DNA of 64,000 nucleotides from NCBI GenBank assembly GCA_944388575.1, contig CALXJF010000002.1:10163-74162 (forward strand), given 5' to 3'. This document shows positions 12,027-46,063 of this stretch, one piece after another. The stretch is from an uncultured Clostridia bacterium (GTDB lineage: Bacteria; Bacillota; Clostridia; TANB77; CAG-465). Made by a program: the position numbers and the translations under genes. Numbering within the stretch: position 1 is the first letter of the stretch; every line of letters begins with the position of its first letter. Below the pieces are notes generated by a model that searched no databases, had not been told where the DNA came from, and was given only the letters and a program-made list of their open reading frames with translations.

Positions 12027-12911
12027 ATGAAGAAGATAAAACTAATATATAATTCTGGCGCAGGTCAAAGTAAATTTAGATATTTTTTGGATACAATTAT
12101 AGAGAAGTTTATGCAAAATGGAATTGAGGTTTCTGTATTTAGGGCAGGAAAGAAAACAAATCTCTATGAATTTTTAAAAGATGTTGATAAGGAAAATTGT
12201 TATGGTATTATAGTTGCTGGTGGAGACGGGACTATAAATAGGGTAGTTAATGTTATGATGCAAAATAATATAAAAACGCCGTTGGGAATAATACCTGCTG
12301 GTACATCAAATGATTTTGCTAAACATATAAAAATGCCAGCAAATTTTTCTGAATGTATAGATAGAATTTTAACTGGTAATGTACAACAAGTGGACGTTGG
12401 ACTGGCAAATAATAAGTATTTTATAAATGTCTGTTCTGCAGGACTATTTACAAATGCTTCACAAAAGGCAGATAAGAATTTAAAAAATGCCATAGGTAAA
12501 TTATCATATTTTATTACTGCCGGTGAACAACTTGTAAAATTTAGACCTTTTAGTGTAAAAATTGAGACTGAAAAAGATATTATAATTGAAAAGATTAATC
12601 TTTTTTTAGTGTTTAATGGAAGTAGTGTTGGTGGTATAGATAAATTTACATCTAATTCTAGTATACAAGATGGATTACTCGATGTAGTTATATTAAAAAA
12701 TTGGAAATTTTATCAAGTTCCATCAATTGTTACAAATGTTCTTAGAGGTAACCATTATGAAGATGAGAATATAATTTATTTAAAAGAAAAATGGATAAAA
12801 ATAAATAAAATAAAAGGGAAATGTGATAGACCAGATGTTGATGGTGATGAAGGTCCAAATTTTCCATTACATATAAAATGTATTGAAAAAGGAATTAATT
12901 TATTTTTATAA
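12027..12911 (+). CDS. Diacylglycerol/lipid kinase family protein (YegS/DagK-like)
   Basis: Catalytic-domain motif VAGGDGTINRV and GIIPAGTSNDFA. Confidence 0.8.
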   Translation: MKKIKLIYNSGAGQSKFRYFLDTIIEKFMQNGIEVSVFRAGKKTNLYEFLKDVDKENCYGIIVAGGDGTINRVVNVMMQNNIKTPLGIIPAGTSNDFAKHIKMPANFSECIDRILTGNVQQVDVGLANNKYFINVCSAGLFTNASQKADKNLKNAIGKLSYFITAGEQLVKFRPFSVKIETEKDIIIEKINLFLVFNGSSVGGIDKFTSNSSIQDGLLDVVILKNWKFYQVPSIVTNVLRGNHYEDENIIYLKEKWIKINKIKGKCDRPDVDGDEGPNFPLHIKCIEKGINLFL

Positions 12912-12935
12912 TTATTAATAAAAGGAAGGATATAT

Positions 12936-15425
12936 ATGTATAATAAAAAGATAGATGAAAAATGGCAAAAAAAATGGGAAGAAACTAATATTGCTAAATT
13001 TAATAAAGAGAATATAGGAAAAAAATATTATTGCTTAGAAATGTTTTCTTATCCTTCAGGTGCAAAATTACATGTTGGCCATTGGTATAATTATGGACCT
13101 GTAGATACTTTTGCTAGGTTTAAGAAAATGCAGGGATTTGAAGTTTTTCAACCTATGGGATTTGATGCTTTTGGACTTCCAGCGGAAAATTATGCAATAA
13201 AAACAGGTATTCATCCTTATGATTCAACTATGAAGAATATAGAAACTATGGAAAAACAATTAAAAGAAATGGGAGCTATGTTTAACTGGGATAGTGAAGT
13301 TATAACTTGTAAAGAGGATTATTACAAATGGACACAATGGCTTTTTTTAAAACTATATGAAAGAGGACTAGCTTATAGAAAAAAAGCTAATGTTAATTGG
13401 TGTCCAAGCTGTAATACTGTTCTTGCTAATGAACAAGTTATAGATGGATTATGTGAAAGATGTAGTAGTGTTGTAACAAAAAAAGATTTAACCCAATGGT
13501 TTTTTAAAATAACTGATTATGCTGAGGAGTTACTTAGTGGATTAGACGAACTAGATTGGCCTGAAAAAACGAAAAAAATTCAAACGAACTGGATAGGAAA
13601 ATCAACTGGTTCTATAGTAACATTTGATGTGGAAAATAGTGATTTATCTTTTGATGTATTTACTACAAGAGTTGATACTTTGATGGGAGTTACTTACGTA
13701 GTGGTAGCACCTGAGCATGAAATTGTACCTAAAATAACTACAAAATCATGTGAAAAAGAAGTAAATGAGTATATAGAGAAATGTAAACTTATTAAAGAAA
13801 TAGACAGATTAGCTGAAAATAGAGAAAAAACAGGAGTATTTACAGGAAGTTATGCTATTCATCCTATAACTAAAGCAAGAGTTCCTATTTGGATTGCAGA
13901 TTATGTATTAGCTACATATGGAACTGGTTGTGTGATGGCTGTTCCTGCACACGATGAGAGAGATTTTGAGTTTGCCAAAAAATATAAGTTAAATTTAAAG
14001 CAAGTTATTATACCCAAAATGATAGGTGAAGAAAAATCTGATTTAAAGGATAAATTTAAGTTTGAAGAGTTATTAGATAAAAAAGCGTATACAGAAAAAG
14101 GTATACTAATTAATTCTGGTGAGTTTGATTCTTTAACTTCTGAAGAGGCTAAAGAAAAAATAACAAAAAAATTAAAAAGCATAAATAAAGGAGATTTTAA
14201 GGTAACATATAGACTTCGTGATTGGTTGGTTTCTCGTCAAAGATATTGGGGAGCTCCAATTCCAGTTGTCTATTGTGAAAAATGTGGTGTTGTACCAGTA
14301 CCCGAAAAGGATTTACCAGTAAAGTTGCCATACAATGTAGAATTTAAACCAGACGGAAAAAGTCCACTTGCAAAGTCTGAAGAGTTTGTAAATACAGTTT
14401 GTCCTCATTGTGGAGGAAAAGCTAAAAGAGAAACAGATACATTAGATACTTTTGTATGCTCATCTTGGTATCAGTTTAGATATCCTGATAATAAAAATAG
14501 TGAAAAAATATTTGATACAGATTGGATCGATAAGATGCTGCCTGTAGATAAATATGTTGGTGGACCAGAACATGCAGCAATGCATTTATTATATGCTAGA
14601 TTTATAACTAAAGTTTTAAGAGATGCAGGGCTTACAAAAGTGAGCGAACCTTTTAAATCTCTTGTTCATCAAGGATTAATACTTGGTCCTGATGGAAATA
14701 AAATGAGTAAGTCAAAAGGAAACGTTATATCGCCAGATGATTATGTTGAAAAATATGGTTCGGATGTATTTAGAATGTATTTAATGTTTGGATTTAGTTA
14801 TGTTGAAGGTGGACCTTGGAGTGAAGAAGGAGTCACTTCTATGTCTAAATTTGTATCAAGACTTCAAAGGATATTGGAAACAATAAATTCATTAGGGAAT
14901 AATGAAAAAACAGAATATACAAAATCAGATAAAGATTTGTTATACGTTTTTAATTTCTCTTTAAAGGGAATTATAGCAGACTTAGAACAAATGCAATTTA
15001 ATACGGCAATAGCTAAAATAATGGAAATAACAAATGCTTTATATAAATATGTTGCTAATGTAAAAGAACAAGAGCAAAATGTTAAGTTGTTAAAAGAAAT
15101 AGCTATAAAATTTATACAAGTAATATCTCCTTTTATGCCTCATTTTGCCGAAGAAATGTGGAGTATATACAATATGCCATTTTCTGTATTTAATACTAGC
15201 TATCCAATAGTAGAAGAAAAATATTTGATTTCAGATACAATTGAGCTTGCGGTACAGGTAAATGGTGTAGTAAGATACAAAATAATAGTTCCATCTTCTG
15301 CAGATGAAACAGAAATCGAAAAAATTGCTTTAGAGCATGAAAGACTAAAGGATTATTTGGTTAACAAAACTATAAAGAAAGTCATTGTAGTAAAATCTCG
15401 AATTGTAAATATTGTAATAGGATAG
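12936..15425 (+). CDS. leuS: Leucine--tRNA ligase
   Basis: 829 aa. HIGH region (LHVGHWYNY), KMSKSKGN, and an editing-domain insertion. The overall layout is typical of bacterial LeuRS. Confidence 0.95.
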
Positions 15426-33408: not shown

Positions 33409-34707
33409 TTATTCCGTTTTATTATCTTCTGTTTTTGCAAAGACTTCATCCTTGTTAAAACATTCGACGATTTGACACATTGCATTAATATGATATTTCA
33501 TATTAACTATTTGAGATAAGTACTCTGGATAATATAACTTCCCATAAGTACAAAGAGGATCAATAAAGTTATGTCCTTCGTCAAGATATTCTGCTAATTC
33601 GTCTAGAGAATAAGAAGTTAAAATAGTACAAGTATTAGCTCTATTAGATAATTTTATTAATAAAGCTTGAGGATTTTTTTTCAAATTCTCATAGTATATT
33701 TCCTTGCTTATTGCTTCATCACGCGATACAAGTTTAATTAATTCTAAAACTTCTGGATCAAGTTTATATGTTTCAATTAATTCATTACCGCCATTTGGAA
33801 GATCACATTTTTTTAATACTTCGTGAAGAAGAGCTGCCGCACAAGTAACATCGTTACTTAAATTCAAAGAAATCAAGTAGGAACATACTCTAAGTGGATG
33901 TATTATAAAGGGATCTCCACTTTTTCTAAGTTGGCCTTGATGAAAGCGCTCTGCAAGAGCTAATGCAATTAAAGTGTTATGCATTTTTCTGGCAGTAGCA
34001 AATCCTCTAATAAACAATAATGTCTTTTTATATCTATTCGGATTATATGAAGTATGTTTATTAAATAATGAGGATATTGTTTCACAAATGGATACTATAT
34101 GGTATTTTATAATAGTAACAGCATTTGAAAGTTCAGGATAATATTCTTTTGCATAAGCACATAAAGGATATATAAGGTCAACTGTTTCTTCAACGTAAGA
34201 TATTAGCTTGTCCTTAGTAAAAGCTTCAACCATAGTGGAACAATTATTTGTTCTGTCAGCTAGTTTTATAATAAGGGCCCTTTTGTCTTCTTTAATTTTA
34301 TCGTAATAAATATTTTCTGGTATACCTTTTTTCTTAGTCAATAATAAAACGATATCAACTACTTCTTTTGGAAGATTATAATGATCAATAAATTCTTTTC
34401 CGTCATATGGAAGATTACAATCTTCAATAACATCATGAAGAATAGCTGCAGCGCAAGTAATATCGTCATCTATTTTAAGATTGATAAGGTATGAAGTTAC
34501 TTCTAAAGGATGAATTATATAAGGTTCACCACCTTTTCTAAATTGCCCTTTATGATAGTGCTTAGCAATACCAAGTGCTATTAGTGTATTATTCATTCCT
34601 TTTCCGATTGCGTATCCTTTGATAAAATTATAAGTTTCTTCCCAGTTATTAAAAGAGCTAGCATGAACTGATAACGTTACATTTTTTTTAGAATCTTTAT
34701 TGTTCAT
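33409..34707 (-). CDS. Protein with two tandem SpoT/RelA-type HD (pyrophosphohydrolase) domains and no synthetase domain
   Basis: The two halves are clearly paralogous: HKGQFRKGGEPYIIHPLEVTSYL...CAAAILHDVIED...LIIKLADRTNN and HQGQLRKSGDPFIIHPLRVCSYL...CAAALLHEVLKK...LLIKLSNRANT. Confidence 0.7.
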   Translation of the reverse strand: MNNKDSKKNVTLSVHASSFNNWEETYNFIKGYAIGKGMNNTLIALGIAKHYHKGQFRKGGEPYIIHPLEVTSYLINLKIDDDITCAAAILHDVIEDCNLPYDGKEFIDHYNLPKEVVDIVLLLTKKKGIPENIYYDKIKEDKRALIIKLADRTNNCSTMVEAFTKDKLISYVEETVDLIYPLCAYAKEYYPELSNAVTIIKYHIVSICETISSLFNKHTSYNPNRYKKTLLFIRGFATARKMHNTLIALALAERFHQGQLRKSGDPFIIHPLRVCSYLISLNLSNDVTCAAALLHEVLKKCDLPNGGNELIETYKLDPEVLELIKLVSRDEAISKEIYYENLKKNPQALLIKLSNRANTCTILTSYSLDELAEYLDEGHNFIDPLCTYGKLYYPEYLSQIVNMKYHINAMCQIVECFNKDEVFAKTEDNKTE

Positions 34708-35458: not shown

Positions 35459-36020
35459 TTGAGTAAAATAGAAATTCATTTAGATAGATTGGAAAAACAT
35501 TATGGAAAATATGATTTTTATAGATTATTTAATTTTACATGTATAATAAGAAAGAATGGTATATGTAAAACAATAAAAAAAGAAAATATAGAAATTATAA
35601 TATTTGAAAATTTATATGATAAAAATTTTAAAAAATATAATCTGGAGGATATATATAATCTTTATAATAATTATGGGGAAAATATTTATTATTTAGATGT
35701 AATCTATTCATTAATTATAATAGATTATAAATTAAATAGATTATTTATTTATCAAGATTTTTTTGGCGTAACCAAAATATATATTTCTTTTATAATCAAA
35801 ATAAATTATTCATTTCTAATAAATTAAAAGAAATTATTAATCAAAATGAATATGAATTTAGAATTAATTATAAAGTTATAAGACAGTTTTTAAAAAATGG
35901 TTATATTGTAGGTAAAGAGACTTTAGTAAAAAATATATATAAAGTTCTAAATAAAAAATATTTAGTAATAAATTTAAAAACTAAATTTATAAATTTAAAA
36001 AATTTTTTTATAACATATTA
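35459..36020 (+). pseudogene. Relic of an asparagine synthase (AsnB-like) gene
   Basis: LEDIYNLYNNYGENIYYLDVIYSLIIIDYKLNRLFIYQDFFGVTKIY follows the AsnB glutaminase-domain pattern (D.E.i..lY...G....l.G.Fa..i.D.....l...RD.fG.KPLYY). It continues in another frame as ...IRQFLKNGYIVGKETLVKNIYKVL. The catalytic N-terminus and the synthetase domain are missing. Confidence 0.55.
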
Positions 36021-36148
36021 AAAAGATTTTTATTGTAGAACAAAAAAAATATTTGAATGGGAATTTTAACGGTTATAATTTAAAAGATTATTTTACTGAT
36101 ATAAAAAATGTAAAAAATAACAGTAGAATTAAACAAGGAGGCAAGTAA

Positions 36149-37420
36149 ATGAAAGTTATAATTATTGGATTAGGATATGTAGGATTGCCTATAGCAATTT
36201 CTTTTGCCAAAAAATATGATACTTATGGTTTTGATATTAATGAAACTAAAATACAAAAATATAAAGAGGGGATTGATTTAACTGAAGAGGTGGGAAGTGA
36301 TGAATTGAATAATACACATTTACACTTTACAAGTAATTCTGAAGATATAAAAAAAGCTGATGTTATTATCATTACAGTACCAACCCCAATTGATAAAAAT
36401 AATAAACCTAATTTAAGTGATTTAAAAAATGCAACAAATATGGTAGCAATGAATTTAAAAAAAGGTAGTATAATTATTTACGAATCAACAGTATATCCAG
36501 GAACTACAGAAGAAGTTTGCGTTCCTATTATAGAAAAAGTTTCTGGATATATATACAATAAAGATTTTTTTGTAGGTTATTCTCCAGAAAGAATTAATCC
36601 TGGTGATAAAAAACATAAGTTTGAAAATATCAAAAAGATAGTATCTGGATCTAATTATGAAGTTACTGAAAAGATTGCTGATTTATATCAAAAATGTTTA
36701 GTACGTAAACCTGTTAAAGTTTCATCTATAAAGGTTGCTGAAGCAGCAAAAATAATTGAAAATTCACAAAGAGATATAAATATTGCTTTTATAAATGAGA
36801 TATCAAAAATATTTCATATTATGAATATTGATACTTATGAAGTTTTAGAAGCAGCTTCTACAAAATGGAATTTTTTAAATTTTAAACCTGGTTTGGTAGG
36901 TGGACATTGTATAGGAGTTGATCCATATTATTTAGCCTATAAAGCAAGAAAAATGAATTTTAATCCAAAGGTAATTCTCTCAGGAAGAAAAATGAATGAT
37001 TCTATGGGATATTATATAGCTGAAAATATAAAAGAGAAGATACTGGCTCATGATTTATCTCTTGAAAATTCTAATGTTTTAATAAAAGGTTTAACTTTTA
37101 AAGAAAATGTAAATGATATAAGAAATTCAAAAGTTATGGATATCATAAAATATTTAAAAAAAGAAAATATAAATGTATATTTAGAAGACAAGCATGTAAA
37201 TAATTTTGAATTAAAAAAAATGTATAATTATTCATTGAGTAACAATATACCAAAAGTTGATGTAGTTGTTTTTGCTGTTAAGCATAAAGAATATTATAAT
37301 ATGAATATAGAAGATTTAAATAATTTATATGATAATAAATACAAAATAGTATTTGATATACACGGGATATTTAATAAAAATGAATTATTAGAAAGGGGAT
37401 TTGAAGTATGGAGATTATAG
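36149..37420 (+). CDS. UDP-N-acetylhexosamine 6-dehydrogenase (TviB/WbpO-like nucleotide-sugar dehydrogenase)
   Basis: N-terminal Rossmann IIGLGYVGLP. The catalytic-Cys motif GGHCIGVDPYYL is typical of the TviB/WbpO subgroup. 423 aa. Confidence 0.8.
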   Translation: MKVIIIGLGYVGLPIAISFAKKYDTYGFDINETKIQKYKEGIDLTEEVGSDELNNTHLHFTSNSEDIKKADVIIITVPTPIDKNNKPNLSDLKNATNMVAMNLKKGSIIIYESTVYPGTTEEVCVPIIEKVSGYIYNKDFFVGYSPERINPGDKKHKFENIKKIVSGSNYEVTEKIADLYQKCLVRKPVKVSSIKVAEAAKIIENSQRDINIAFINEISKIFHIMNIDTYEVLEAASTKWNFLNFKPGLVGGHCIGVDPYYLAYKARKMNFNPKVILSGRKMNDSMGYYIAENIKEKILAHDLSLENSNVLIKGLTFKENVNDIRNSKVMDIIKYLKKENINVYLEDKHVNNFELKKMYNYSLSNNIPKVDVVVFAVKHKEYYNMNIEDLNNLYDNKYKIVFDIHGIFNKNELLERGFEVWRL

Positions 37421-38379
37421 ATATAGATCAAAAATATAATGTTTTAATAACAGGAGTTGCAGGTTTTATTGGTTCAAATTTAGCTGAAGCATGTTTAGAG
37501 TCGGGATTTTATGTTAGAGGGATTGATAATTTTTATAATGGAAGAAGAGAGAATATTACAGAATTATTAAAAAATGAAAAATTTGAATTTGTTGAAGGAG
37601 ATATTTGTGATTATAAATTATGTGAGAGTATTTGTAAAGATATTGATTTTGTATTTCATGAAGCTGCATGGGGAGCGGTTCCAAAATCAATTATACAACC
37701 GTTAGACTATACAAAAAATAATATATTAGGTACACATAACATTCTGCATTCTGCTTATATGAATAATGTAAAAGGTGTAATATATGCTTCATCTGCTTCA
37801 GTTTATGGTGATAATGATGATAAAGTTAAAATTATTGGAAATGAAGGTAATGTATTATCTCCATATGCACTTAGTAAAAAGGCAAATGAAGAAACAGCTT
37901 TATTATATTATAACTTATATGGATTAAAAACGGTAGGATTGAGGTACTTTAATGTTTTTGGTAGGAAGCAAAATCCATATTCTGAATATTCTGCAGTTAT
38001 ACCAAAGTTTATAAAAGCTATTTTAGAAAATAAAGAAATAAAAATAAATGGTGACGGAGAACAAAGTAGAGATTTCACATATATTGATAACGTTATTGAG
38101 GCTAATTTGAAAGCATGTATGTCTATAAATAATGCTGCTGGACAAGTTTTTAATGTAGGTTTTGGTGAAAGCACATCTGTTAATAAATTATATAATTTAA
38201 TAAGCAATTTATTAAGAAAAGAGACAAATGTAAAATATGTCCCTGAAAGAAAAGGAGATATAAAAAATTCATTATCAGATATAAGTAAAACTAAAATGGT
38301 TTTAGAATATAATCCAAAATATAGTATACAAGATGGTTTGGAAAAAACAATTGAGTGGTACTTAAAGAATTTAAATTAA
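37408..38379 (+). CDS. NAD-dependent nucleotide-sugar 4-epimerase (TviC/WbpP-like)
   Basis: ITGVAGFIGSNL Rossmann motif and YALSK (YxxxK) catalytic motif. Overlaps the dehydrogenase gene by 13 nt. Confidence 0.8.
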   Translation: MEIIDIDQKYNVLITGVAGFIGSNLAEACLESGFYVRGIDNFYNGRRENITELLKNEKFEFVEGDICDYKLCESICKDIDFVFHEAAWGAVPKSIIQPLDYTKNNILGTHNILHSAYMNNVKGVIYASSASVYGDNDDKVKIIGNEGNVLSPYALSKKANEETALLYYNLYGLKTVGLRYFNVFGRKQNPYSEYSAVIPKFIKAILENKEIKINGDGEQSRDFTYIDNVIEANLKACMSINNAAGQVFNVGFGESTSVNKLYNLISNLLRKETNVKYVPERKGDIKNSLSDISKTKMVLEYNPKYSIQDGLEKTIEWYLKNLN

Positions 38380-38412: not shown

Positions 38413-39504
38413 ATGAAGATTTTAATTGGAGTATGTGGAATAGGCAAAGGTCACTGTATTAGACAATATGAATTGAGTAGAGAACTAATAAAGAATGGGC
38501 ATGAAGTAAGAATATTTACTTATGGTGAAGGAATAAATTTTTTTTCGAATAGTAAAATGAAAGTTTATGATGTATATGTGCCTATGATTACATTTAAGGG
38601 AGATAAAATTAATGTATATGATTGTATAAAAAGAAATTGGTTAAAAATTATTCCTGGAAAAATACATAATAATAATATTTATAGAGAATTATTAAGAGAA
38701 AATTTTTTGCCCGATTTATGTATTAGTGATTACGAACCAACTGTTGCAAAAATCGCATATAAATTAAATAAACCATTAATAAATATTGATCAACATAGTA
38801 AATTTATTTATATGAATGATACTATAAATGGTTATTCAAATATAGAAGAAAAAAGAAGATTACAATTCTTCTTTCCTAAATCAGATAAAAAATTTGTTGT
38901 TTCTTTTTATGATTTACCTAAAGGCATGTTACCTAATAATATTGAGCTTTTGTATCCTATAATAAGAAATGACTTAAAAGAAATCTCCAAACAAGTAAAT
39001 AGTAAGAAAAAACAAATTTTAGTATATTTCTCAAAATATATAGATATTCCTATAAAACAGAGTATGGAGGAAATAATAAAGATATTTAATAGTTTTAAAA
39101 ATTATAATTTTATAATTTTTTCAACAGAATATGCTAAAAGTGGTGAAAAAATAAAAGAAAATGTTACTATATTGAAAAATCAAAGAGAAAGATTTGTTAA
39201 GGAATTAATAAATTCATGTGCTGTTATTAGTACAGCAGGTCATACTTTAATATCAGAGGCATTATATTGCAATATTCCTTTGTTTGTAATCCCTTTGCCA
39301 ACATATGATCAAAACTATTGCGGTAAATTTATAAATGATAACCAAATAGGTTATTCTTCAGATTTGATTACTATTAAAAATTTAAGTAAATTCTTAAATA
39401 ATATAGAAATGTATAGAAATAATATAAAAAAATGTGAAAATTTAGTTAAGGAAATGAATACCTTGAAATATTTGGTATCAAAAATTGAAGAATATGAAAA
39501 ATAA
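38413..39504 (+). CDS. GT-B fold glycosyltransferase (MurG/GT28-like, MJ1255-type)
   Basis: N-terminal GIGKGHCIRQ..L...L...GHEV. The C-terminal STAGHTLISEALYCNIPLFVIPL......Q..C matches the GT28/GT1 donor-binding region. Confidence 0.65.
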   Translation: MKILIGVCGIGKGHCIRQYELSRELIKNGHEVRIFTYGEGINFFSNSKMKVYDVYVPMITFKGDKINVYDCIKRNWLKIIPGKIHNNNIYRELLRENFLPDLCISDYEPTVAKIAYKLNKPLINIDQHSKFIYMNDTINGYSNIEEKRRLQFFFPKSDKKFVVSFYDLPKGMLPNNIELLYPIIRNDLKEISKQVNSKKKQILVYFSKYIDIPIKQSMEEIIKIFNSFKNYNFIIFSTEYAKSGEKIKENVTILKNQRERFVKELINSCAVISTAGHTLISEALYCNIPLFVIPLPTYDQNYCGKFINDNQIGYSSDLITIKNLSKFLNNIEMYRNNIKKCENLVKEMNTLKYLVSKIEEYEK

Positions 39505-39524
39505 AAATATAAAGTAATGAAAAA

Positions 39525-39793
39525 GTAATTTTTTTGATTAGTAATTTATGTAGTTTTAGATGTAAAAGATGCTTTGCATATACTGGTAAAAAAAGAAAAA
39601 ATAAAATAACTATATAGTAAAAAAACAAGTCCATAGATAGTTTTAAAAATTAGGTGCAGAAATAATATCTTTTAGTGCTGGTGAACCATTAATGGGTAGA
39701 AATCAATATATAGAATACTCTAAAAAGAAGAATATAAAAATTGGGTTCTTAACTAATGTTGTATTATTAGATAGAGAAAAAAGGTTGGAATGA
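39525..39793 (+). pseudogene. Relic of a radical SAM gene (paralog of the N-terminus of 39855-41741)
   Basis: VIFLISNLCSFRCKRCFAYTG (CxxxCxxC) is followed by stops. Another frame gives GAEIISFSAGEPLMGRNQYIEYSKKKNIKIGFLTNVVLLD (decayed GGEPL and TNG motifs). Confidence 0.6.
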
Positions 39794-39854: not shown

Positions 39855-41741
39855 ATGAAATTAGAATATAAATCAAAATACTATTATACTGATTATGCTA
39901 AAATATATAGAGAAAAGGGAAGTTTTTATAATGTTAATGAAAACCCAACACTTGTTGTTCTAAAGCCAACACTAAATTGTATTGCTAATTGTAAGCATTG
40001 TAATCCTAGAAGTAAAAAATTTTCTACTAATAAAAGAATATCTTTACTAGAATATGATAAATTGTTAAAGAAATTAAAAATTATGGGAACAGAGCAAATT
40101 TGTATTAGTGGTGGTGAACCTTTAATATATAAAGATATTGTAAAACTAGTTAGATTAATTACTAAAAATGGTCTTAAAGCATCTTTAAATACTAATGGTT
40201 GGTTTTTAAACTTTAATATGTTTAAAGAATTAATGAATGCTGGTCTTTTATGTATAAATTTATCAATTGATTCTCCTAGAGCAGAAGAACATGATAAATT
40301 ACGAGCTTTAGATGGCTTATTTGATAGAGCTATAAGCCAAATAAAAGAATGTAAGGAAAGTGACATTCCTTTTAAATTAAATTTAAGAATGGTATTATCA
40401 AAATATAATTATAAAGAAATATCTGAAATGATAGATTTAGCAAATAATATAAAATCAGATATTTTGAGCATTGATATGATAGAGGCAGATTCAAAAGAAA
40501 AGAATTTTTTATTAGATTCTAATCAAATAAATGACTTTAAAAATAATTATGTACCAGAATTAATAAAAAAAATTAATAGTTTAGATATAAACGAAAATTT
40601 AAAGTCTTATAATATTAAACAAGTTAAAGATTTTTTTAATACAGAATTTAATAATATTAAAAATTTTGAGAATGGTTTTTATTGGCCAGATGATACAATA
40701 AAAAGAAAGTGTGATATTCCAAGTTCATTTATGATAATTGAAGGTGATGGTATGGTGTTGCCTTGTAATGCAGTAGAATATAATAGAGAATATATAATAG
40801 GAAATATATTAGAAACAGAAATAGAGGAATTATGGAAATCTGAAGAATGGAAGAATTTTAGAAATAAAAAGATGGACTTTTGTAGAGAGTGTCCAATGAA
40901 TATGAGTTATATGATAGTTTTTAATGATGATAAAATAGAAAGAGATTGTAAAATAGAAAAATTTACTACTAAAAAAATAGAAAATATGATAAAAATTAAT
41001 AAAAATAATGACTATTATGAGGAACGTAAAGAAGAATATTTTAAATTTTTTAACAAAGGAAACGAATTTATAGATAAAATAAGTAAAAAATATCCAATTG
41101 ATTCTTTAGAATATAAAACAGAATTTTTATATCCTAACTTTTTTGATAAAATGGATTCTAATAAAATAATATTTGAAAGTTATAGTAATGCATCTGAATA
41201 TTATTCATTAAGACAATTATTAGGAAGACCAGAAAAGTTTGAAAAACAACTTGAAATATTTGATTTTATGGAAGAAAATTTATCAAAAAATTCAATTGTT
41301 ATGGATTATGGATGCTGTGTTGGTGATTTTTCTATATTATTTGCAAGAATGGGATATAAAGTATTAGCGATTGATTTAGATATTGATACTTTTAATTTTG
41401 CAAAAAAAAGATTCGTTGATAGAAATTTAGATATTACATGCTATAGTGTTTTAGAAGATATGAAATTACCAAAATTATTTCAAAAGGTTAATTTTATATT
41501 TTGCAGAGATGTTTTAGAACATACTGTCAACCCACTAGAAGTGTTAACGTTCTTTTATAAAACTTTAACAGAGGATGGATATATGTATATTTCTACAATG
41601 AATCCAGGTGAGGAAATATATATAGGAGCTGAACATCTAGAAGATACAATAAAAAAAGCACAGAGTAGGGAATATAAAGAATTTTTTGAAAAGCACTTTA
41701 TTAGCTTAGGAATACACGGATTATATAAAAAAAGAATTTAG
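39855..41741 (+). CDS. Radical SAM (SPASM/twitch-like) enzyme fused to a class I SAM-dependent methyltransferase
   Basis: LNCIANCKHC (CxxxCxxC), ISGGEPL and NTNG. Auxiliary Cys region CDIPSSFMIIEGDGMVLPC...FCRECP. The C-terminal part has MTase motif I VMDYGCCVGDFS...VLAIDLD. Confidence 0.7.
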   Translation: MKLEYKSKYYYTDYAKIYREKGSFYNVNENPTLVVLKPTLNCIANCKHCNPRSKKFSTNKRISLLEYDKLLKKLKIMGTEQICISGGEPLIYKDIVKLVRLITKNGLKASLNTNGWFLNFNMFKELMNAGLLCINLSIDSPRAEEHDKLRALDGLFDRAISQIKECKESDIPFKLNLRMVLSKYNYKEISEMIDLANNIKSDILSIDMIEADSKEKNFLLDSNQINDFKNNYVPELIKKINSLDINENLKSYNIKQVKDFFNTEFNNIKNFENGFYWPDDTIKRKCDIPSSFMIIEGDGMVLPCNAVEYNREYIIGNILETEIEELWKSEEWKNFRNKKMDFCRECPMNMSYMIVFNDDKIERDCKIEKFTTKKIENMIKINKNNDYYEERKEEYFKFFNKGNEFIDKISKKYPIDSLEYKTEFLYPNFFDKMDSNKIIFESYSNASEYYSLRQLLGRPEKFEKQLEIFDFMEENLSKNSIVMDYGCCVGDFSILFARMGYKVLAIDLDIDTFNFAKKRFVDRNLDITCYSVLEDMKLPKLFQKVNFIFCRDVLEHTVNPLEVLTFFYKTLTEDGYMYISTMNPGEEIYIGAEHLEDTIKKAQSREYKEFFEKHFISLGIHGLYKKRI

Positions 41742-41750
41742 GAGATAAAT

Positions 41751-42353
41751 ATGGAAAATAAAAAATTGATTGTTCTAGAAGGAATTTCTGGCGCCGGAAA
41801 AAGTACAAATATACAGCTTCTTACAAGTAATGAAAGAAAAATAGATGGTATCAATATAAAAATTAGTAAATTGATGGAAAATATTGAAAAAACTAATTAT
41901 ATAGATTATACTAATACTAAATACTTTTTGTTATTAGAAAATTTAAAAACTATATTATATGAGGATTCAAAGAAAAATTTCGTATTATTTGAGAGGTATT
42001 ATCTATCGACACTAGCGCATGTATATGCAATGAGTATTTTAAATAATGATAAAAAAATATATAAAGATATATTAGAATGGTACCAAAACAATATAGGTAA
42101 TACAATAAAAAAACCTAATGCTTATATATTTTTTAATGTTCCTATTGAAGTTTCTATGCAAAGAATAAAAAAAAGAAATGAGAGTGTTGTTAATGATATT
42201 TGGATAGAAAGACAATATATGCAATTATGTGAAGAGTATAAGAGAAGTTTTATAAATCAATATGAAAAAGATGTAAAAATATTTAATATAGATGCTACTA
42301 GAAGTATTTTAGAAGTGTATAATGAAGTATTAGAAATTATAAAAAATATATAA
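41751..42353 (+). CDS. Thymidylate/deoxynucleoside kinase-like P-loop protein (divergent)
   Basis: LEGISGAGKST Walker A, ERYYLSTLAHVYA (compare Tmk DRY..S..AYQ) and a late MQRIKKR. It lacks the REPGGT substrate motif of true Tmk. Confidence 0.5.
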   Translation: MENKKLIVLEGISGAGKSTNIQLLTSNERKIDGINIKISKLMENIEKTNYIDYTNTKYFLLLENLKTILYEDSKKNFVLFERYYLSTLAHVYAMSILNNDKKIYKDILEWYQNNIGNTIKKPNAYIFFNVPIEVSMQRIKKRNESVVNDIWIERQYMQLCEEYKRSFINQYEKDVKIFNIDATRSILEVYNEVLEIIKNI

Positions 42354-42378: not shown

Positions 42379-43962
42379 ATGAGTAGGAAAATTATTATAG
42401 GTGGTGCATGGCCTTATGCAAATAGTTCTTTACATTTAGGACATTTAGCAGCTTTAATATCTGGTGATATTTTGGCAAGATATCACAGACTAAAAGGCGA
42501 TGAAGTCATTTTTGTATCTGGTACTGATTGTCATGGAACACCGATTACTGAGACTGCAAAGAAAGAAAAAGTAAGTCCAAAAGATATTGCCAATAAATAT
42601 CATAAAGAGTTTTTTGAAGTATTTAAAAAAATGAATTTTTCATATGATTTATATACTAGTACTGAAGATGAATATCATAAAGAAAAAGTAATGGATTTGT
42701 TTAGAAAAATATATGATAATGGTTATATTATAGAAAAGATAGACGAGGATAATTATTGTGAGAAGTGTAAGAAATTTGTTGCTGATAGAGAACTTAAATT
42801 GAAATGTCCTAATTGTGGTAATGAAACAAAAGGAGATCAATGTGATTGTGGTTATGTACCTACAAAAGAGGATTTAAAAAGAGCATTTTGTAACGAATGT
42901 GGTAATTTAACAACTACTAGAGAAAATAAAAATCTATATTTAGAATTACCAAAGTTACAATTAGAAATAGAAAAGTATGTAAATAAAAATAAAAATAAGT
43001 GGAGAAAAAATGCCCAGAATGAAACTGATAAGTATTTAAAAGAAGGATTGAAAGAAAGAGCAGTTACAAGAAATTTAGATTGGGGGATAGATATACCAGT
43101 AAAAGGCTTTGAAGATAAAAAAATGTATGTGTGGATAGATGCCGTTTTTGGGTATTTAACAGCTACAATGAAATATTGTGAGAATAATAATTTAAACTTT
43201 GATGAATGGTGGAAAGGAAATAGTGAAAAAAATATAATTTATATGGTACATGGAAAAGATAATATTGTTTTTCATTCAATAATTTTTCCAGCTCTACTTA
43301 TTGGATTAAATGAAAATATTCACTTACCTGATATAATGGTTTCAACTGAGTATTTGAACTTTAATGATCAAAAATTTTCTAAAAGTAAAGGTATAGGACT
43401 AACTATTATAGAAGCGTTAGATAAATTTGATACTGAAACTTTAAGATTTCATTTAATAAAAAATGGACCAGAAACTAAAGATGCTAATTTTACAGAAGAA
43501 GATTATATATTAACACATAATGAAATTACTAATAAATTAGGTAATTTCGTTAATAGAACATTGAAATATAAAGGTTTATCTATACTTCCTCATGGAAAGT
43601 TAGATTTAAATGTTGAAAGCTATATTAAGAAAAAATATTTGGAAATTTCAGGCTTTATAGAACATATAGAATTTAGGAAAGCAGCACTTAGTATAATAGA
43701 ATTATTAGACTTTGCTAATAAATATTACGATGACCAGAAACCATGGATACAAATTAAAGAAGATATAAATAAATTTAATGATACAATATATACATGTGCA
43801 ATTATAATAGCAAATATAGCTAATTTAATCGAACCTTTTATGCCTATAACAGCTCAGAAGATAAGAGGATATTTACAGTTAAAAGAAAACAATTGGGAAT
43901 ATATAAATTATATATATAATGTTAGTTTAACTGATATTTATCCTTTATTTGAGAGAAAATAA
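42379..43962 (+). CDS. Methionine--tRNA ligase-type class I synthetase, short form without a C-terminal tRNA-binding appendix
   Basis: PYANSSLHLGH (HIGH), GTDCHGTPI, zinc-knuckle cysteines, YVWIDAVFGY, HGKDNIVFHSIIFPALL, KFSKSKG (KMSKS), GNFVNRTL and DDQKPW. Confidence 0.85.
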   Translation: MSRKIIIGGAWPYANSSLHLGHLAALISGDILARYHRLKGDEVIFVSGTDCHGTPITETAKKEKVSPKDIANKYHKEFFEVFKKMNFSYDLYTSTEDEYHKEKVMDLFRKIYDNGYIIEKIDEDNYCEKCKKFVADRELKLKCPNCGNETKGDQCDCGYVPTKEDLKRAFCNECGNLTTTRENKNLYLELPKLQLEIEKYVNKNKNKWRKNAQNETDKYLKEGLKERAVTRNLDWGIDIPVKGFEDKKMYVWIDAVFGYLTATMKYCENNNLNFDEWWKGNSEKNIIYMVHGKDNIVFHSIIFPALLIGLNENIHLPDIMVSTEYLNFNDQKFSKSKGIGLTIIEALDKFDTETLRFHLIKNGPETKDANFTEEDYILTHNEITNKLGNFVNRTLKYKGLSILPHGKLDLNVESYIKKKYLEISGFIEHIEFRKAALSIIELLDFANKYYDDQKPWIQIKEDINKFNDTIYTCAIIIANIANLIEPFMPITAQKIRGYLQLKENNWEYINYIYNVSLTDIYPLFERK

Positions 43963-43976
43963 GGAAAATTTATAAA

Positions 43977-44879
43977 ATGAAAATAATAATAAATGCTGAT
44001 GATTTTGGTATTGACATAGATAGAGATTTAGGAATTTTTTATGGTGTTATAAAAGGATATGTTACTAGTGTTAGTATAATTGTAACCAATAAAATTGGAT
44101 GGTTTAGAAAATTATTAGTTTGCATTATGAAAAAAAAAGCTAGTATAGGAATTCATATTAATTTAACAGACAATCCATTATTAAAATATACTATGGAGGA
44201 ACTTTGTTTAAAAAATTACAATTATGAACGCAGAAAGTTTTCTTTTTGGAGAAATTCAATTGATAGTACATTGAATTTTAAAATGATTGATGAAGAAATA
44301 AATATGCAATTTGAAAAATTTATTAAGGAATATGGGTTTATACCAAATCACATTGATGGCCATAATCATTGTAATATTTTTAATAAAAAAGTCGAAGAGT
44401 TATTTGAAAATATTTCTATTAAATATAAAATTCATTTAAGAATACCATATGAAGATTTGGAAAAGTTTGATAAGAAACTTTTAAGTAAAAATACTTTTTT
44501 TAAAGACTTTAAAATATTGGATGATAAAATGGATATAAATTATATAAGAGATAGATTAGATTATTTTTTTAAATATGATATGAATTTAAATAATTATATG
44601 TGTATTATGAATTGTCAAAAAGATAAAATATATTATATAGGTACTATGTATGGATATTTTAGAAACTCTAATGTTTTATTAAAACAATTATCTAATATTG
44701 GAAATATTGATTGTGTACAAATAATGACACATCCTGGATTTTATTGGAAGAATATGAAGCATAAGACTGTATTTTCAAATTATGATAGAAAAACGGAATT
44801 GGATAGTTTAAGGGATTTTAAACTAAATTCTATATATTTACAAATAGATTATACAAATTATAATTTTTATCAAAATTAG
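43977..44879 (+). CDS. YdjC/ChbG/HpnK-family carbohydrate deacetylase
   Basis: N-terminal IINADDFGI and the later HIDGHNH motif are typical of YdjC-like proteins. Confidence 0.7.
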   Translation: MKIIINADDFGIDIDRDLGIFYGVIKGYVTSVSIIVTNKIGWFRKLLVCIMKKKASIGIHINLTDNPLLKYTMEELCLKNYNYERRKFSFWRNSIDSTLNFKMIDEEINMQFEKFIKEYGFIPNHIDGHNHCNIFNKKVEELFENISIKYKIHLRIPYEDLEKFDKKLLSKNTFFKDFKILDDKMDINYIRDRLDYFFKYDMNLNNYMCIMNCQKDKIYYIGTMYGYFRNSNVLLKQLSNIGNIDCVQIMTHPGFYWKNMKHKTVFSNYDRKTELDSLRDFKLNSIYLQIDYTNYNFYQN

Positions 44880-45599: not shown

Positions 45600-46063
45600 A
45601 TGAATATACGATTAGCAAATAGCAATGATATAGAAAAAATAAATGCTATTATAAATGACCTAAATAATGTAAAAAAATTTTGCAAATTTGAAAGTGATAT
45701 TTTAAATAAAGAAATGTATATTATGTAAGAAAATAATTATATAATTGGCATTTTGTATTAAGTAAGCTTGATTACCCAGATTATAAAGATATAGAATGGA
45801 CTTCTAATAATAAGAGTTTTTTTTATTTAAATAGATTAGCAATACTTCCTTTGATATAGGGAAAAGGTTTTGCAAAGAAGGCAATGGAGTTTATTATAAA
45901 GTATGCTATCGATAATAGATATGACTGTATTAGATTAACAGTTTATAATAAAAATAAAAGTGCTGCTATTGGATTGTATGAAAGACTTGGATTTAAAAAA
46001 ATAGCAAATGGTTATTGGCAACTTGAAGACAAAGTATTTGTTGGCTATGAAAAATATGTATAA
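45600..46063 (+). pseudogene. GNAT acetyltransferase pseudogene (two in-frame stops and one frameshift)
   Basis: MNIRLANSNDIEKINAIIN...YIM*ENNYIIG, then a frameshift, then FVLSKLDYPDYKDIEWTSNNKSFFYLNRLAILPLI*GKGFAKKAMEFIIKYA...LGFKKIANGY. Confidence 0.8.

Follow-up and report, generated by a model that had tools for sequence, protein, structure and literature searches.

The window analysed here is a 64,000-nucleotide stretch of contig CALXJF010000002.1 from an uncultured Clostridia bacterium, chromosomal DNA of a Firmicute with ~25% G+C that is otherwise known only from gut metagenome assemblies (ENA ERZ28614847 scaffold_371 and others) and a chicken-gut run. It carries the housekeeping genes leuS, ruvB, queA, queH, pta-ackA, gatA/gatB and spoVS and a tRNA cluster, and, at 42379-43962, a gene for methionyl-tRNA synthetase (MetRS) that lies in an operon of sugar genes, directly upstream of a gene for a YdjC-family deacetylase (ydjC). 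The MetRS itself is ordinary as an enzyme, and the new and robust finding is the deep conservation of its linkage to YdjC and the operon. The genes of this region are listed below.

35609..36054, + strand: remnant of an AsnB-like gene (asparagine-synthase-type amidotransferase), approximately residues 37-186 of 510, in two frames
36149..37420, + strand: NDP-sugar 6-dehydrogenase, TviB-like (Pfam UDPG_MGDP_dh N, central and C domains)
37408..38379, + strand: NAD-dependent sugar-nucleotide epimerase, TviC-like (Pfam Epimerase, 192 bits), with a 13-nt overlap with the TviB-like gene
38413..39504, + strand: GT-B glycosyltransferase of the uncharacterised MJ1255/VC2487 family (PF13528, 134.6 bits)
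39519..39781, + strand: remnant of a second radical-SAM gene, residues ~7-96 left, in two frames
39855..41741, + strand: fusion of a radical-SAM/SPASM protein and a class I SAM-dependent methyltransferase (Pfam Radical_SAM, SPASM and Methyltransf_23/31/11)
41751..42353, + strand: divergent thymidylate-kinase/deoxynucleoside-kinase-like P-loop kinase, Tmk-like (Pfam Thymidylate_kin, 38.6 bits; dNK, 33.3 bits)
42379..43962, + strand: MetRS, short form with two zinc knuckles (type 2), 527 aa, ATG start (profile and alignment evidence)
43977..44879, + strand: YdjC-family carbohydrate N-deacetylase (PF04794, 109.6 bits)
45600-45728 and 45884-46063, + strand: possible broken GNAT acetyltransferase, two open reading frames (ORFs) of 42 aa and 59 aa (ORF translations; stops interrupt the frame)

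The MetRS is a complete type 2 enzyme

The product of 42379-43962 matched the Pfam domains tRNA-synt_1g (PF09334; 424.6 bits, residues 6-395) and Anticodon_3 (PF19303; 47 bits, residues 412-507) and the NCBIfam model TIGR00398 for metG (441.8 bits, residues 7-526), the last above its curated cut-off of 336.35. The best whole-length model was PRK00133 of the E. coli type (490 bits), with 287 bits for PRK12267, the type 1 model of Bacillus/Staphylococcus-type enzymes, and the closest solved structures were those of Pyrococcus abyssi MetRS (E 8e-96) and human cytoplasmic MetRS (E 2e-95). The motifs SLHLGHLA, KFSKS, YVWIDAVFGY, HGKDNIVFHS, GNFVNRTL and QKPWIQ were all present, which bears out the initial annotation of a complete MetRS with all class I and anticodon motifs. 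Its statement that the protein ends at 527 aa with no C-terminal Trbp111-like domain also agreed with the Pfam search, in which tRNA_bind/Trbp111 (PF01588) was absent.

The protein was further aligned residue by residue with E. coli MetG from NC_000913.3, and E. coli numbering is used for the positions that follow. The signatures HIGH (as HLGH) and KMSKS (as KFSKS) and the methionine-pocket residues Y15, D52, W253, A256, Y260 and H301 were all kept. Positions 13, 229, 257, 297 and 305 were occupied by W, R, V, N and F, of which N at 297 and F at 305 match the archaeal and human enzymes, position 257 likewise doing so by its variability. The anticodon residues N391, R395, N452, D456, P460 and W461 were identical (6/6) in the window MetRS and in all 13 relatives compared. 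In the zinc region (YCEKC...CPNCG...CDCG...CNECG), the four zinc cysteines of the E. coli enzyme align and are accompanied by an outer CxxC/CxxC pair. As a connective peptide (CP) insertion with two knuckles is the defining trait of type 2 MetRS (PMC8165550), the window MetRS was assigned to type 2. Judged from these alignments and the comparison with its relatives below, the gene very probably encodes a canonical MetRS orthologous to the resident enzyme of its clade, and we consider it probable that this is the sole MetRS of the genome.

The MetRS is the resident enzyme of a clade of gut bacteria

The search for MetRS homologues returned 6674 proteins. The short form, which had been read as a sign of an unusual enzyme, proved to be the norm of the clade: 118 of the 120 best homologues (460-552 aa) lack PF01588, and only P0059 and P0068 (66% identity) keep the domain (proteins and loci are designated by P and L numbers). 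A scan of one genome per GTDB species gave 80 loci with MetRS orthologues of 57-86% identity, in metagenome-assembled genomes (MAGs) labelled Clostridia, Clostridium sp. (CAG:343, CAG:273), Bacilli and Candidatus Scatovivens; L015, L020 and L024 were excluded from comparisons as truncated or artefactual ORF calls. MetRS neighbourhoods in the 80 loci were highly variable and often of housekeeping type, with LeuRS/ArgRS/IleRS, TatD, UvdE or thymidylate-kinase-like genes. TatD is also the neighbour of metS in B. subtilis. The nearest relatives of the window MetRS, at L012 (86% identity), L016 (79%) and L007 (75%), are not accompanied by the sugar genes, and at L007 the gene adjoins SpoU/MreB/YchF/GlyRS (also AspRS), a housekeeping context. 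In a neighbour-joining tree, the window MetRS was sister to the operon-free enzyme of L012, and the operon-bearing MetRSs were polyphyletic, scattered among operon-free ones. The window enzyme thus groups with the housekeeping MetRS of relatives that lack the sugar genes, one half of the pattern that the initial annotation had named as speaking for an ordinary enzyme. Six sister contrasts yielded no operon-specific substitution, with no column in which more than three contrasts converged on one residue; only two columns were weakly enriched (350 F and 480 I).

In operon-free loci, the commonest immediate neighbour of MetRS was a divergent dTMP-kinase-like protein of 225-231 aa, scoring below equivalog cut-offs, whose gene lies directly downstream of MetRS in L049, L054, L055, L057, L068, L075, L076, L083 and L087 and two genes downstream in L086. 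This neighbour may echo the tmk...metS region of Bacillus or may represent a further link between MetRS and a kinase.

These data indicate that the MetRS is most probably the housekeeping enzyme rather than a neofunctionalised paralog. Between the two alternatives offered in the initial annotation, an essential MetRS captured in a sugar operon and a recruited paralog comparable to MshC, the first fits best. The second would be a MetRS-derived ligase acting outside translation and independently of tRNA, joining an amino acid to a deacetylated sugar. The resemblance of the neighbourhood to the MshA/MshB/MshC/MshD set speaks in its favour, but the full anticodon-binding domain is kept, the protein passes the metG equivalog-domain cut-off, its nearest relatives stand in operon-free housekeeping contexts, and neither rate acceleration nor a specific substitution pattern was seen. 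Because every tRNA determinant is conserved, this is the least likely of the explanations considered here, and we regard it as highly improbable.

The linkage of MetRS to YdjC and the operon is ancient

The radical-SAM/SPASM family of the operon is narrow (46 proteins at E<=1e-30, including two fusions with the PF13528 glycosyltransferase). Seven members were looked up, five of them gut-Firmicute orthologues (52-71% identity) and two others. In all five gut-Firmicute cases, YdjC and MetRS were adjacent within the operon; the other two, the Shimazuella cluster described below and a very distant locus with a glycosyltransferase-radical SAM fusion, had no MetRS. Seen from the MetRS side, the operon is rare, occurring in 4 of ~80 species of the GTDB scan. 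A metagenome scan from the radical-SAM side gave 4 loci, 3 of which were too short to include MetRS, while L092 showed the order radical SAM-Tmk-MetRS. Linkage of MetRS to the operon was also seen in L013, L014 and L046 and in the partial locus L092.

The order of genes inside the operon varies by lineage. It is AsnB-radical SAM-hypothetical-TviB-TviC-glycosyltransferase-radical SAM-Tmk-YdjC-MetRS in L096/L097, where MetRS overlaps YdjC, TviB-TviC-radical SAM-(IucA/C-like)-glycosyltransferase-YdjC-MetRS in L098/L099, L102 and L104, and epimerase-radical SAM-glycosyltransferase-YdjC-MetRS-methyltransferase-GNAT in L101. MetRS stands beside YdjC throughout, either inside the operon (the window, L101) or at its end, and YdjC adjoins MetRS in 9 of 9 operon-bearing loci (L001, L013, L014, L046, L096, L098, L101, L102 and L104).

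The MetRSs of operon-bearing relatives are 44-72% identical to that of the window and fall into two deep clades, the second of which is very widespread and found on contigs of >1 Mb, one operon-free member lying near the S10 ribosomal operon. A control for shared ancestry was made with pairs of 40-65% MetRS identity: only 12 of 2444 operon-free pairs (~0.5%) shared either flanking gene, as against 27 of 27 operon-bearing pairs sharing the adjacency of YdjC. Trees of the glycosyltransferase, radical SAM and YdjC (and TviC) were broadly congruent with that of MetRS. Raw pairwise identities had suggested horizontal mobility or repeated independent insertion of the operon, an explanation dropped after the trees proved broadly congruent. 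Thus the linkage of MetRS to YdjC and the operon is shown to be ancient, to have co-diverged with MetRS and to be kept in every gut-Firmicute genome examined that retains the operon. Given the broad congruence of the trees, the simplest history is that of an ancient linked unit which co-diverged and was lost as a block, except for MetRS, in most lineages. The initial annotation was right to place the MetRS in a non-housekeeping sugar context; that this linkage is itself conserved across deep divergence goes beyond it and keeps a functional connection possible. No paper that connects MetRS with YdjC, radical SAM and glycosyltransferases of this family was found in a literature search, and there is next to no work on TIGR00661/PF13528.

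Several features of the related loci were recorded along the way. The two fusions of the PF13528/TIGR00661 glycosyltransferase with a radical-SAM/SPASM domain are P0162 (L103 10001-12277) and P0166, indicating that the glycosyltransferase and the radical-SAM protein act together; the L103 locus also contains four more radical-SAM genes, a sulfotransferase gene and a PIG-L/glycosyltransferase fusion. The second operon type, in L098 (11100-12314), L102 (11103-12317) and L104 (11094-12317), encodes a protein of 404-407 aa with weak IucA/IucC and FhuF similarity (an NIS-synthetase-like amide ligase) that replaces the Tmk-like and AsnB-like genes.

Spacing and transcription of the MetRS gene

The stop codon of the Tmk-like gene occupies 42351-42353, and the MetRS ATG follows at 42379 after a 25-nt spacer that carries AAGGAGG 4 nt upstream of the ATG. 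The MetRS stop codon (43960-43962) is separated by 14 nt from the ydjC ATG at 43977; both spacings had been given exactly in the initial annotation. MetRS would be translated from its own strong Shine-Dalgarno sequence. No T-box or other Rfam family reached the gathering score across the whole window, and none was found at E<=5 in 34.6-46.9 kb, in agreement with the earlier observation that no T-box leader fits into the 25-nt spacer before MetRS. The use of this observation as a sign of unusual context did not stand up. The leuS gene (12936-15425, 829 aa), a second aminoacyl-tRNA synthetase (aaRS) gene packed in a mixed operon of the same window (12027-15425), begins 24 nt past a DAGK/YegS-type lipid-kinase gene, likewise with no T-box. 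Since there is no T-box anywhere in the window and leuS is packed as tightly, the missing T-box at MetRS is uninformative.

Terminator-like sites were absent between 34.7 and 46.9 kb, and promoter-like sites in the operon region were no more frequent than in shuffled sequence, with no obvious separate promoter for MetRS. These scans are consistent with one transcription unit but otherwise uninformative, and MetRS appears to be transcribed within the polycistronic accessory operon. In a chicken-gut metatranscriptome only short contigs were recovered, in the TviC, radical SAM-methyltransferase and MetRS genes; other runs resembled DNA metagenomes. A strain variant at window position 42338 (also in L004 and L005; runs X2-X4) lacks 18 nt at the end of the Tmk-like gene. 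The kinase ORF of the variant strains is 214 aa long and shares 8 nt with the beginning of the MetRS gene, an arrangement suggestive of translational coupling.

Genes of the operon and their erosion

The TviB-like protein scored 391.8 bits with TIGR03026, over the cut-off, and 427.8 bits with the TviB model, under its cut-off of 592; it probably converts UDP-N-acetylglucosamine (UDP-GlcNAc) to the corresponding uronic acid (UDP-GlcNAcA), as judged from these profile matches. The TviC-like epimerase (262.6 bits with the TviC model, cut-off 760) and the glycosyltransferase (129 bits with TIGR00661, cut-off 195.9) also remained under the cut-offs of their named models, and a PDB relative of the glycosyltransferase was not found by sequence. 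The nearest solved structure to the radical-SAM/SPASM protein was that of the cytosylglucuronate decarboxylase BlsE (7VOB; E 1e-14, core only), but the BlsE NCBIfam model gave 70 bits against a cut-off of 400, and the AhbD/NirJ models scored higher. The Tmk-like kinase (49.9 bits with TIGR00041, under the cut-off of 83) has orthologues in the cluster of L013, L014, L046 and L096. Together, the operon would build a 2-acetamido-hexuronic-acid unit of the N-acetylgalactosaminuronic acid (GalNAcA) type and tailor it on an acceptor.

The AsnB-like remnant was detected by tblastn with the intact L013 and L096 proteins (63%/43% identity in two frames, E 1.5e-32) and overlaps the ORF 'hyp122' at 35459-35827; the intact AsnB-like genes lie directly upstream of the TviB-like gene in L013 and L096. 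The second radical-SAM remnant was detected by tblastn with the L013 protein (50-57% identity, E 8e-17). The corresponding gene encodes 335 aa at the same position in L013/L014 and is intact in L013, L014, L046 and L096. In some strains the TviB-like gene is split by a frameshift into ORFs of 362 aa and 66 aa (L002 3772-5042, L003 17-217). The sugar genes of the window species are thus undergoing erosion next to an intact MetRS gene, two of them having been reduced to remnants and the TviB-like gene being split in some strains.

The GNAT fragments downstream of ydjC are probably one broken gene, whose membership in the operon is uncertain. A 58-aa product of this fragment in L006 gave a weak FR47 match, and the window fragments bore no recognisable likeness to the GNATs that lie downstream of MetRS in L101, L102 and L100. 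Just upstream of the operon, on the minus strand, lies a gene (33409-34707) for a 432-aa protein with two tandem HD_4 (RelA/SpoT-hydrolase-type) domains; a RelA/SpoT-like gene likewise precedes the cassette adjacent to MetRS in L102 and L106.

The content of the operon bears on a further explanation, namely that the gene is a second, operon-dedicated type 2 MetRS beside a type 1 enzyme encoded elsewhere, which would confer self-resistance to a Met-AMP-mimicking or aminoacyl-nucleoside product or supply Met-tRNA. The presence of aaRS genes in clusters for aaRS-targeting compounds is a known pattern (mupirocin, albomycin, agrocin 84) and provides a precedent. Type 1 MetRS as well as type 2 MetRS are encoded by some gut Firmicutes (PMC7187627). 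BlsE as the closest solved radical-SAM structure and the Tmk-like kinase are features reminiscent of nucleoside antibiotics, and RimL/MccE-type GNAT, NUDIX, APH and cytidine-deaminase-family genes occur in or beside other versions of the cluster. In L066, two genes of the MetRS family are separated by 4 kb, and the second of them belongs to a radical SAM-HAD operon. The likeness to BlsE is weak, however, and the window MetRS is 86% identical to that of an operon-free sister and belongs to a clade that practically all related species carry, in contexts of housekeeping type. A resistance allele would be expected to show convergent operon-specific substitutions, and there are none. Only two MAGs among the 80 loci contained two MetRS-family members, both involving short contigs and possibly binning errors. 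An operon-dedicated second copy is thus unlikely. In the region 15236-20143 of L066 (minus strand), the second MetRS-family gene is divergent, encodes 555 aa with intact catalytic and anticodon residues, and ends an operon of genes for a radical-SAM protein (322 aa), a HAD hydrolase and a 442-aa protein.

Proposed coupling through activated methionine and its alternatives

We favour, at a probability of roughly 45%, the interpretation that MetRS and the operon are held together by functional coupling through activated methionine. MetRS would charge tRNA in the usual two steps, from Met and ATP to Met-AMP and then to Met-tRNAMet. YdjC enzymes act on amino sugars by removing N-acetyl groups, which leaves a free amine as the obvious site of acylation. 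In the proposed scheme, YdjC would free the 2-amino group of the sugar, methionine activated by MetRS, as Met-tRNA or Met-AMP, would N-acylate the freed amine, and the methionylated product would, in some versions, finally be N-acetylated by a RimL/MccE-type GNAT. That YdjC is the constant neighbour of MetRS was counted as a hint at amine acylation, and a GNAT gene follows MetRS in L101 and L102, with another in the Shimazuella cluster described below.

An unrelated cassette was found beside MetRS in two deep clades. It encodes a pyridoxal phosphate (PLP)-dependent decarboxylase, an aminotransferase with an unknown N-terminal domain, a radical-SAM protein (341 aa) and an Acetyltransf_3 GNAT, and it lies downstream of MetRS in L062, L066, L074, L078, L081 and L084 and upstream in L106/L107. 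In loci of sufficient length, the cassette includes a GNAT belonging to the same family as the one behind MetRS in L102. A common theme of a new amine with MetRS, and in part an N-acetyltransferase, is suggested for both cassettes. As a tentative extension that we hold to be doubtful, the canonical, unduplicated MetRS may double as the amino-acid-activating step for a family of accessory pathways in gut Firmicutes, comprising the YdjC operon and the PLP-decarboxylase cassette, in which amines would be N-methionylated and then N-acetylated. The products of such pathways could be new methionyl-aminosugar or aminoacyl-nucleoside-like metabolites.

Several observations weigh against coupling through activated methionine. 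Genes for an aminoacyl-tRNA-dependent transferase (Fem, MprF, CDPS or PEARL type) are missing from the window, its only GNAT is fragmentary and not demonstrably related to the other GNATs, and the MetRS showed no adaptation to a second substrate in the six sister contrasts. MetRS is absent from the cluster of Shimazuella, a Bacillales isolate, whose order is radical SAM (47% identity)-glycosyltransferase-YdjC-epimerase-APH-NUDIX-methyltransferase-GNAT. With two remnant genes and a TviB-like gene split in some strains, the pathway may be non-functional in the window species, and cotranscription of MetRS with the operon was deduced solely from spacing and the absence of terminators. Finally, the slot between RelA/SpoT and MetRS holds different cassettes in L102 and L106, and the MetRS of L009 is surrounded by other, unrelated wall-glycan genes, both of which fit a hot spot of recombination or insertion as well as a function.

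The last two observations lead to the remaining explanation, that a housekeeping MetRS is linked to the operon without biochemical meaning, either because accessory cassettes settle preferentially beside metG or through transcriptional entanglement. In the latter variant, MetRS would rely on the operon promoter and its separation would be lethal, and only linked copies of an otherwise easily lost operon would survive. The generic MetRS with no operon-specific residues, the loss of the operon in most relatives and its decay in the window, and the lack of a terminator or obvious separate promoter ahead of MetRS all agree with such a linkage, as does leuS, which stands 24 nt behind an unrelated kinase gene. 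On the other hand, a hot spot would be unmarked, with no integrase, tRNA gene or repeat next to MetRS, and the partner of MetRS is specifically YdjC despite the changing operon order. In addition, two unrelated cassettes adjacent to MetRS share a radical-SAM protein and an amine-forming step, and some loci of both types have a GNAT family in common, a pattern that resembles a biochemical theme more than random cargo. We consider linkage without biochemical meaning possible but rather unlikely, and coupling through activated methionine is preferred over both entanglement and a second copy.

Implications

The unusual feature of this locus is that an essential-type translation gene has been kept beside one particular accessory operon across lineages with MetRSs of only 44-60% identity, in contrast to all its other neighbours, whose places have been reshuffled. 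Should the connection be biochemical, a canonical, unduplicated aaRS gene would be integral to a glycan or small-molecule pathway, of which we know of no earlier case, and it would point to a methionine-bearing sugar or nucleoside-like metabolite of abundant uncultured gut bacteria. If it reflects transcriptional entanglement only, the locus would still illustrate cleanly how, in nature, an accessory operon can persist by keeping an essential gene 'hostage'. Independently of this, a short type 2 MetRS is in use across a large clade of Clostridia/Bacilli MAGs from the gut, which is relevant to the spectrum of type-1-specific inhibitors such as CRS3123.

Comparison with known systems

The window MetRS has the same domain order and the same catalytic, zinc-knuckle and anticodon residues as the type 2 enzymes of P. 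abyssi (1RQG), human cytoplasm (5GL7) and E. coli (MetG, 1QQT/1F4L), but lacks their C-terminal Trbp111/dimerisation domain. It is a type 2 enzyme in a lineage of Gram-positive type, where type 1 is usually considered the rule.

The first two intact genes of the operon form an overlapping pair whose best-scoring named models are TviB and TviC of the Vi antigen (UDP-GlcNAc to UDP-GlcNAcA to UDP-GalNAcA); in contrast to the Vi-antigen locus, both are under the equivalog cut-offs and there are no TviD/TviE polymerase or export genes. In blasticidin biosynthesis, the early steps involve a UDP-uronic acid, the cytosylglucuronic acid (CGA) synthase BlsD and the radical-SAM decarboxylase BlsE (PMC3715490). 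The window operon likewise places a UDP-sugar dehydrogenase, a glycosyltransferase and a radical-SAM protein with an auxiliary-cluster domain side by side, but the likeness to BlsE is confined to the radical-SAM core. With the BlsE model far below its cut-off, the BlsD/BlsE analogy was kept only as a weak lead.

MupM (IleRS), AbmK (SerRS), AgnB2 (LeuRS) and VlmL (SerRS) are likewise complete aaRS genes embedded and co-inherited in biosynthetic operons. These are second copies, whereas the window MetRS is the resident orthologue by phylogeny and shows no operon-specific substitutions; we know of no MetRS-directed natural product for this cluster. The mycothiol genes MshA-MshB-MshC-MshD similarly bring together a glycosyltransferase, an N-deacetylase and an aaRS-family protein, and versions of the present operon with a GNAT extend the parallel; in a mycothiol-like logic the deacetylase would expose an amine that can be aminoacylated. 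The enzyme families differ, in that the deacetylase belongs to YdjC here and to LmbE/PIG-L in mycothiol synthesis, and the glycosyltransferase to PF13528 here and to GT4 there. MshC, a dedicated paralog of CysRS, is found alongside the real CysRS and acts free of tRNA, whereas the window protein is indistinguishable from the canonical MetRS of its clade.

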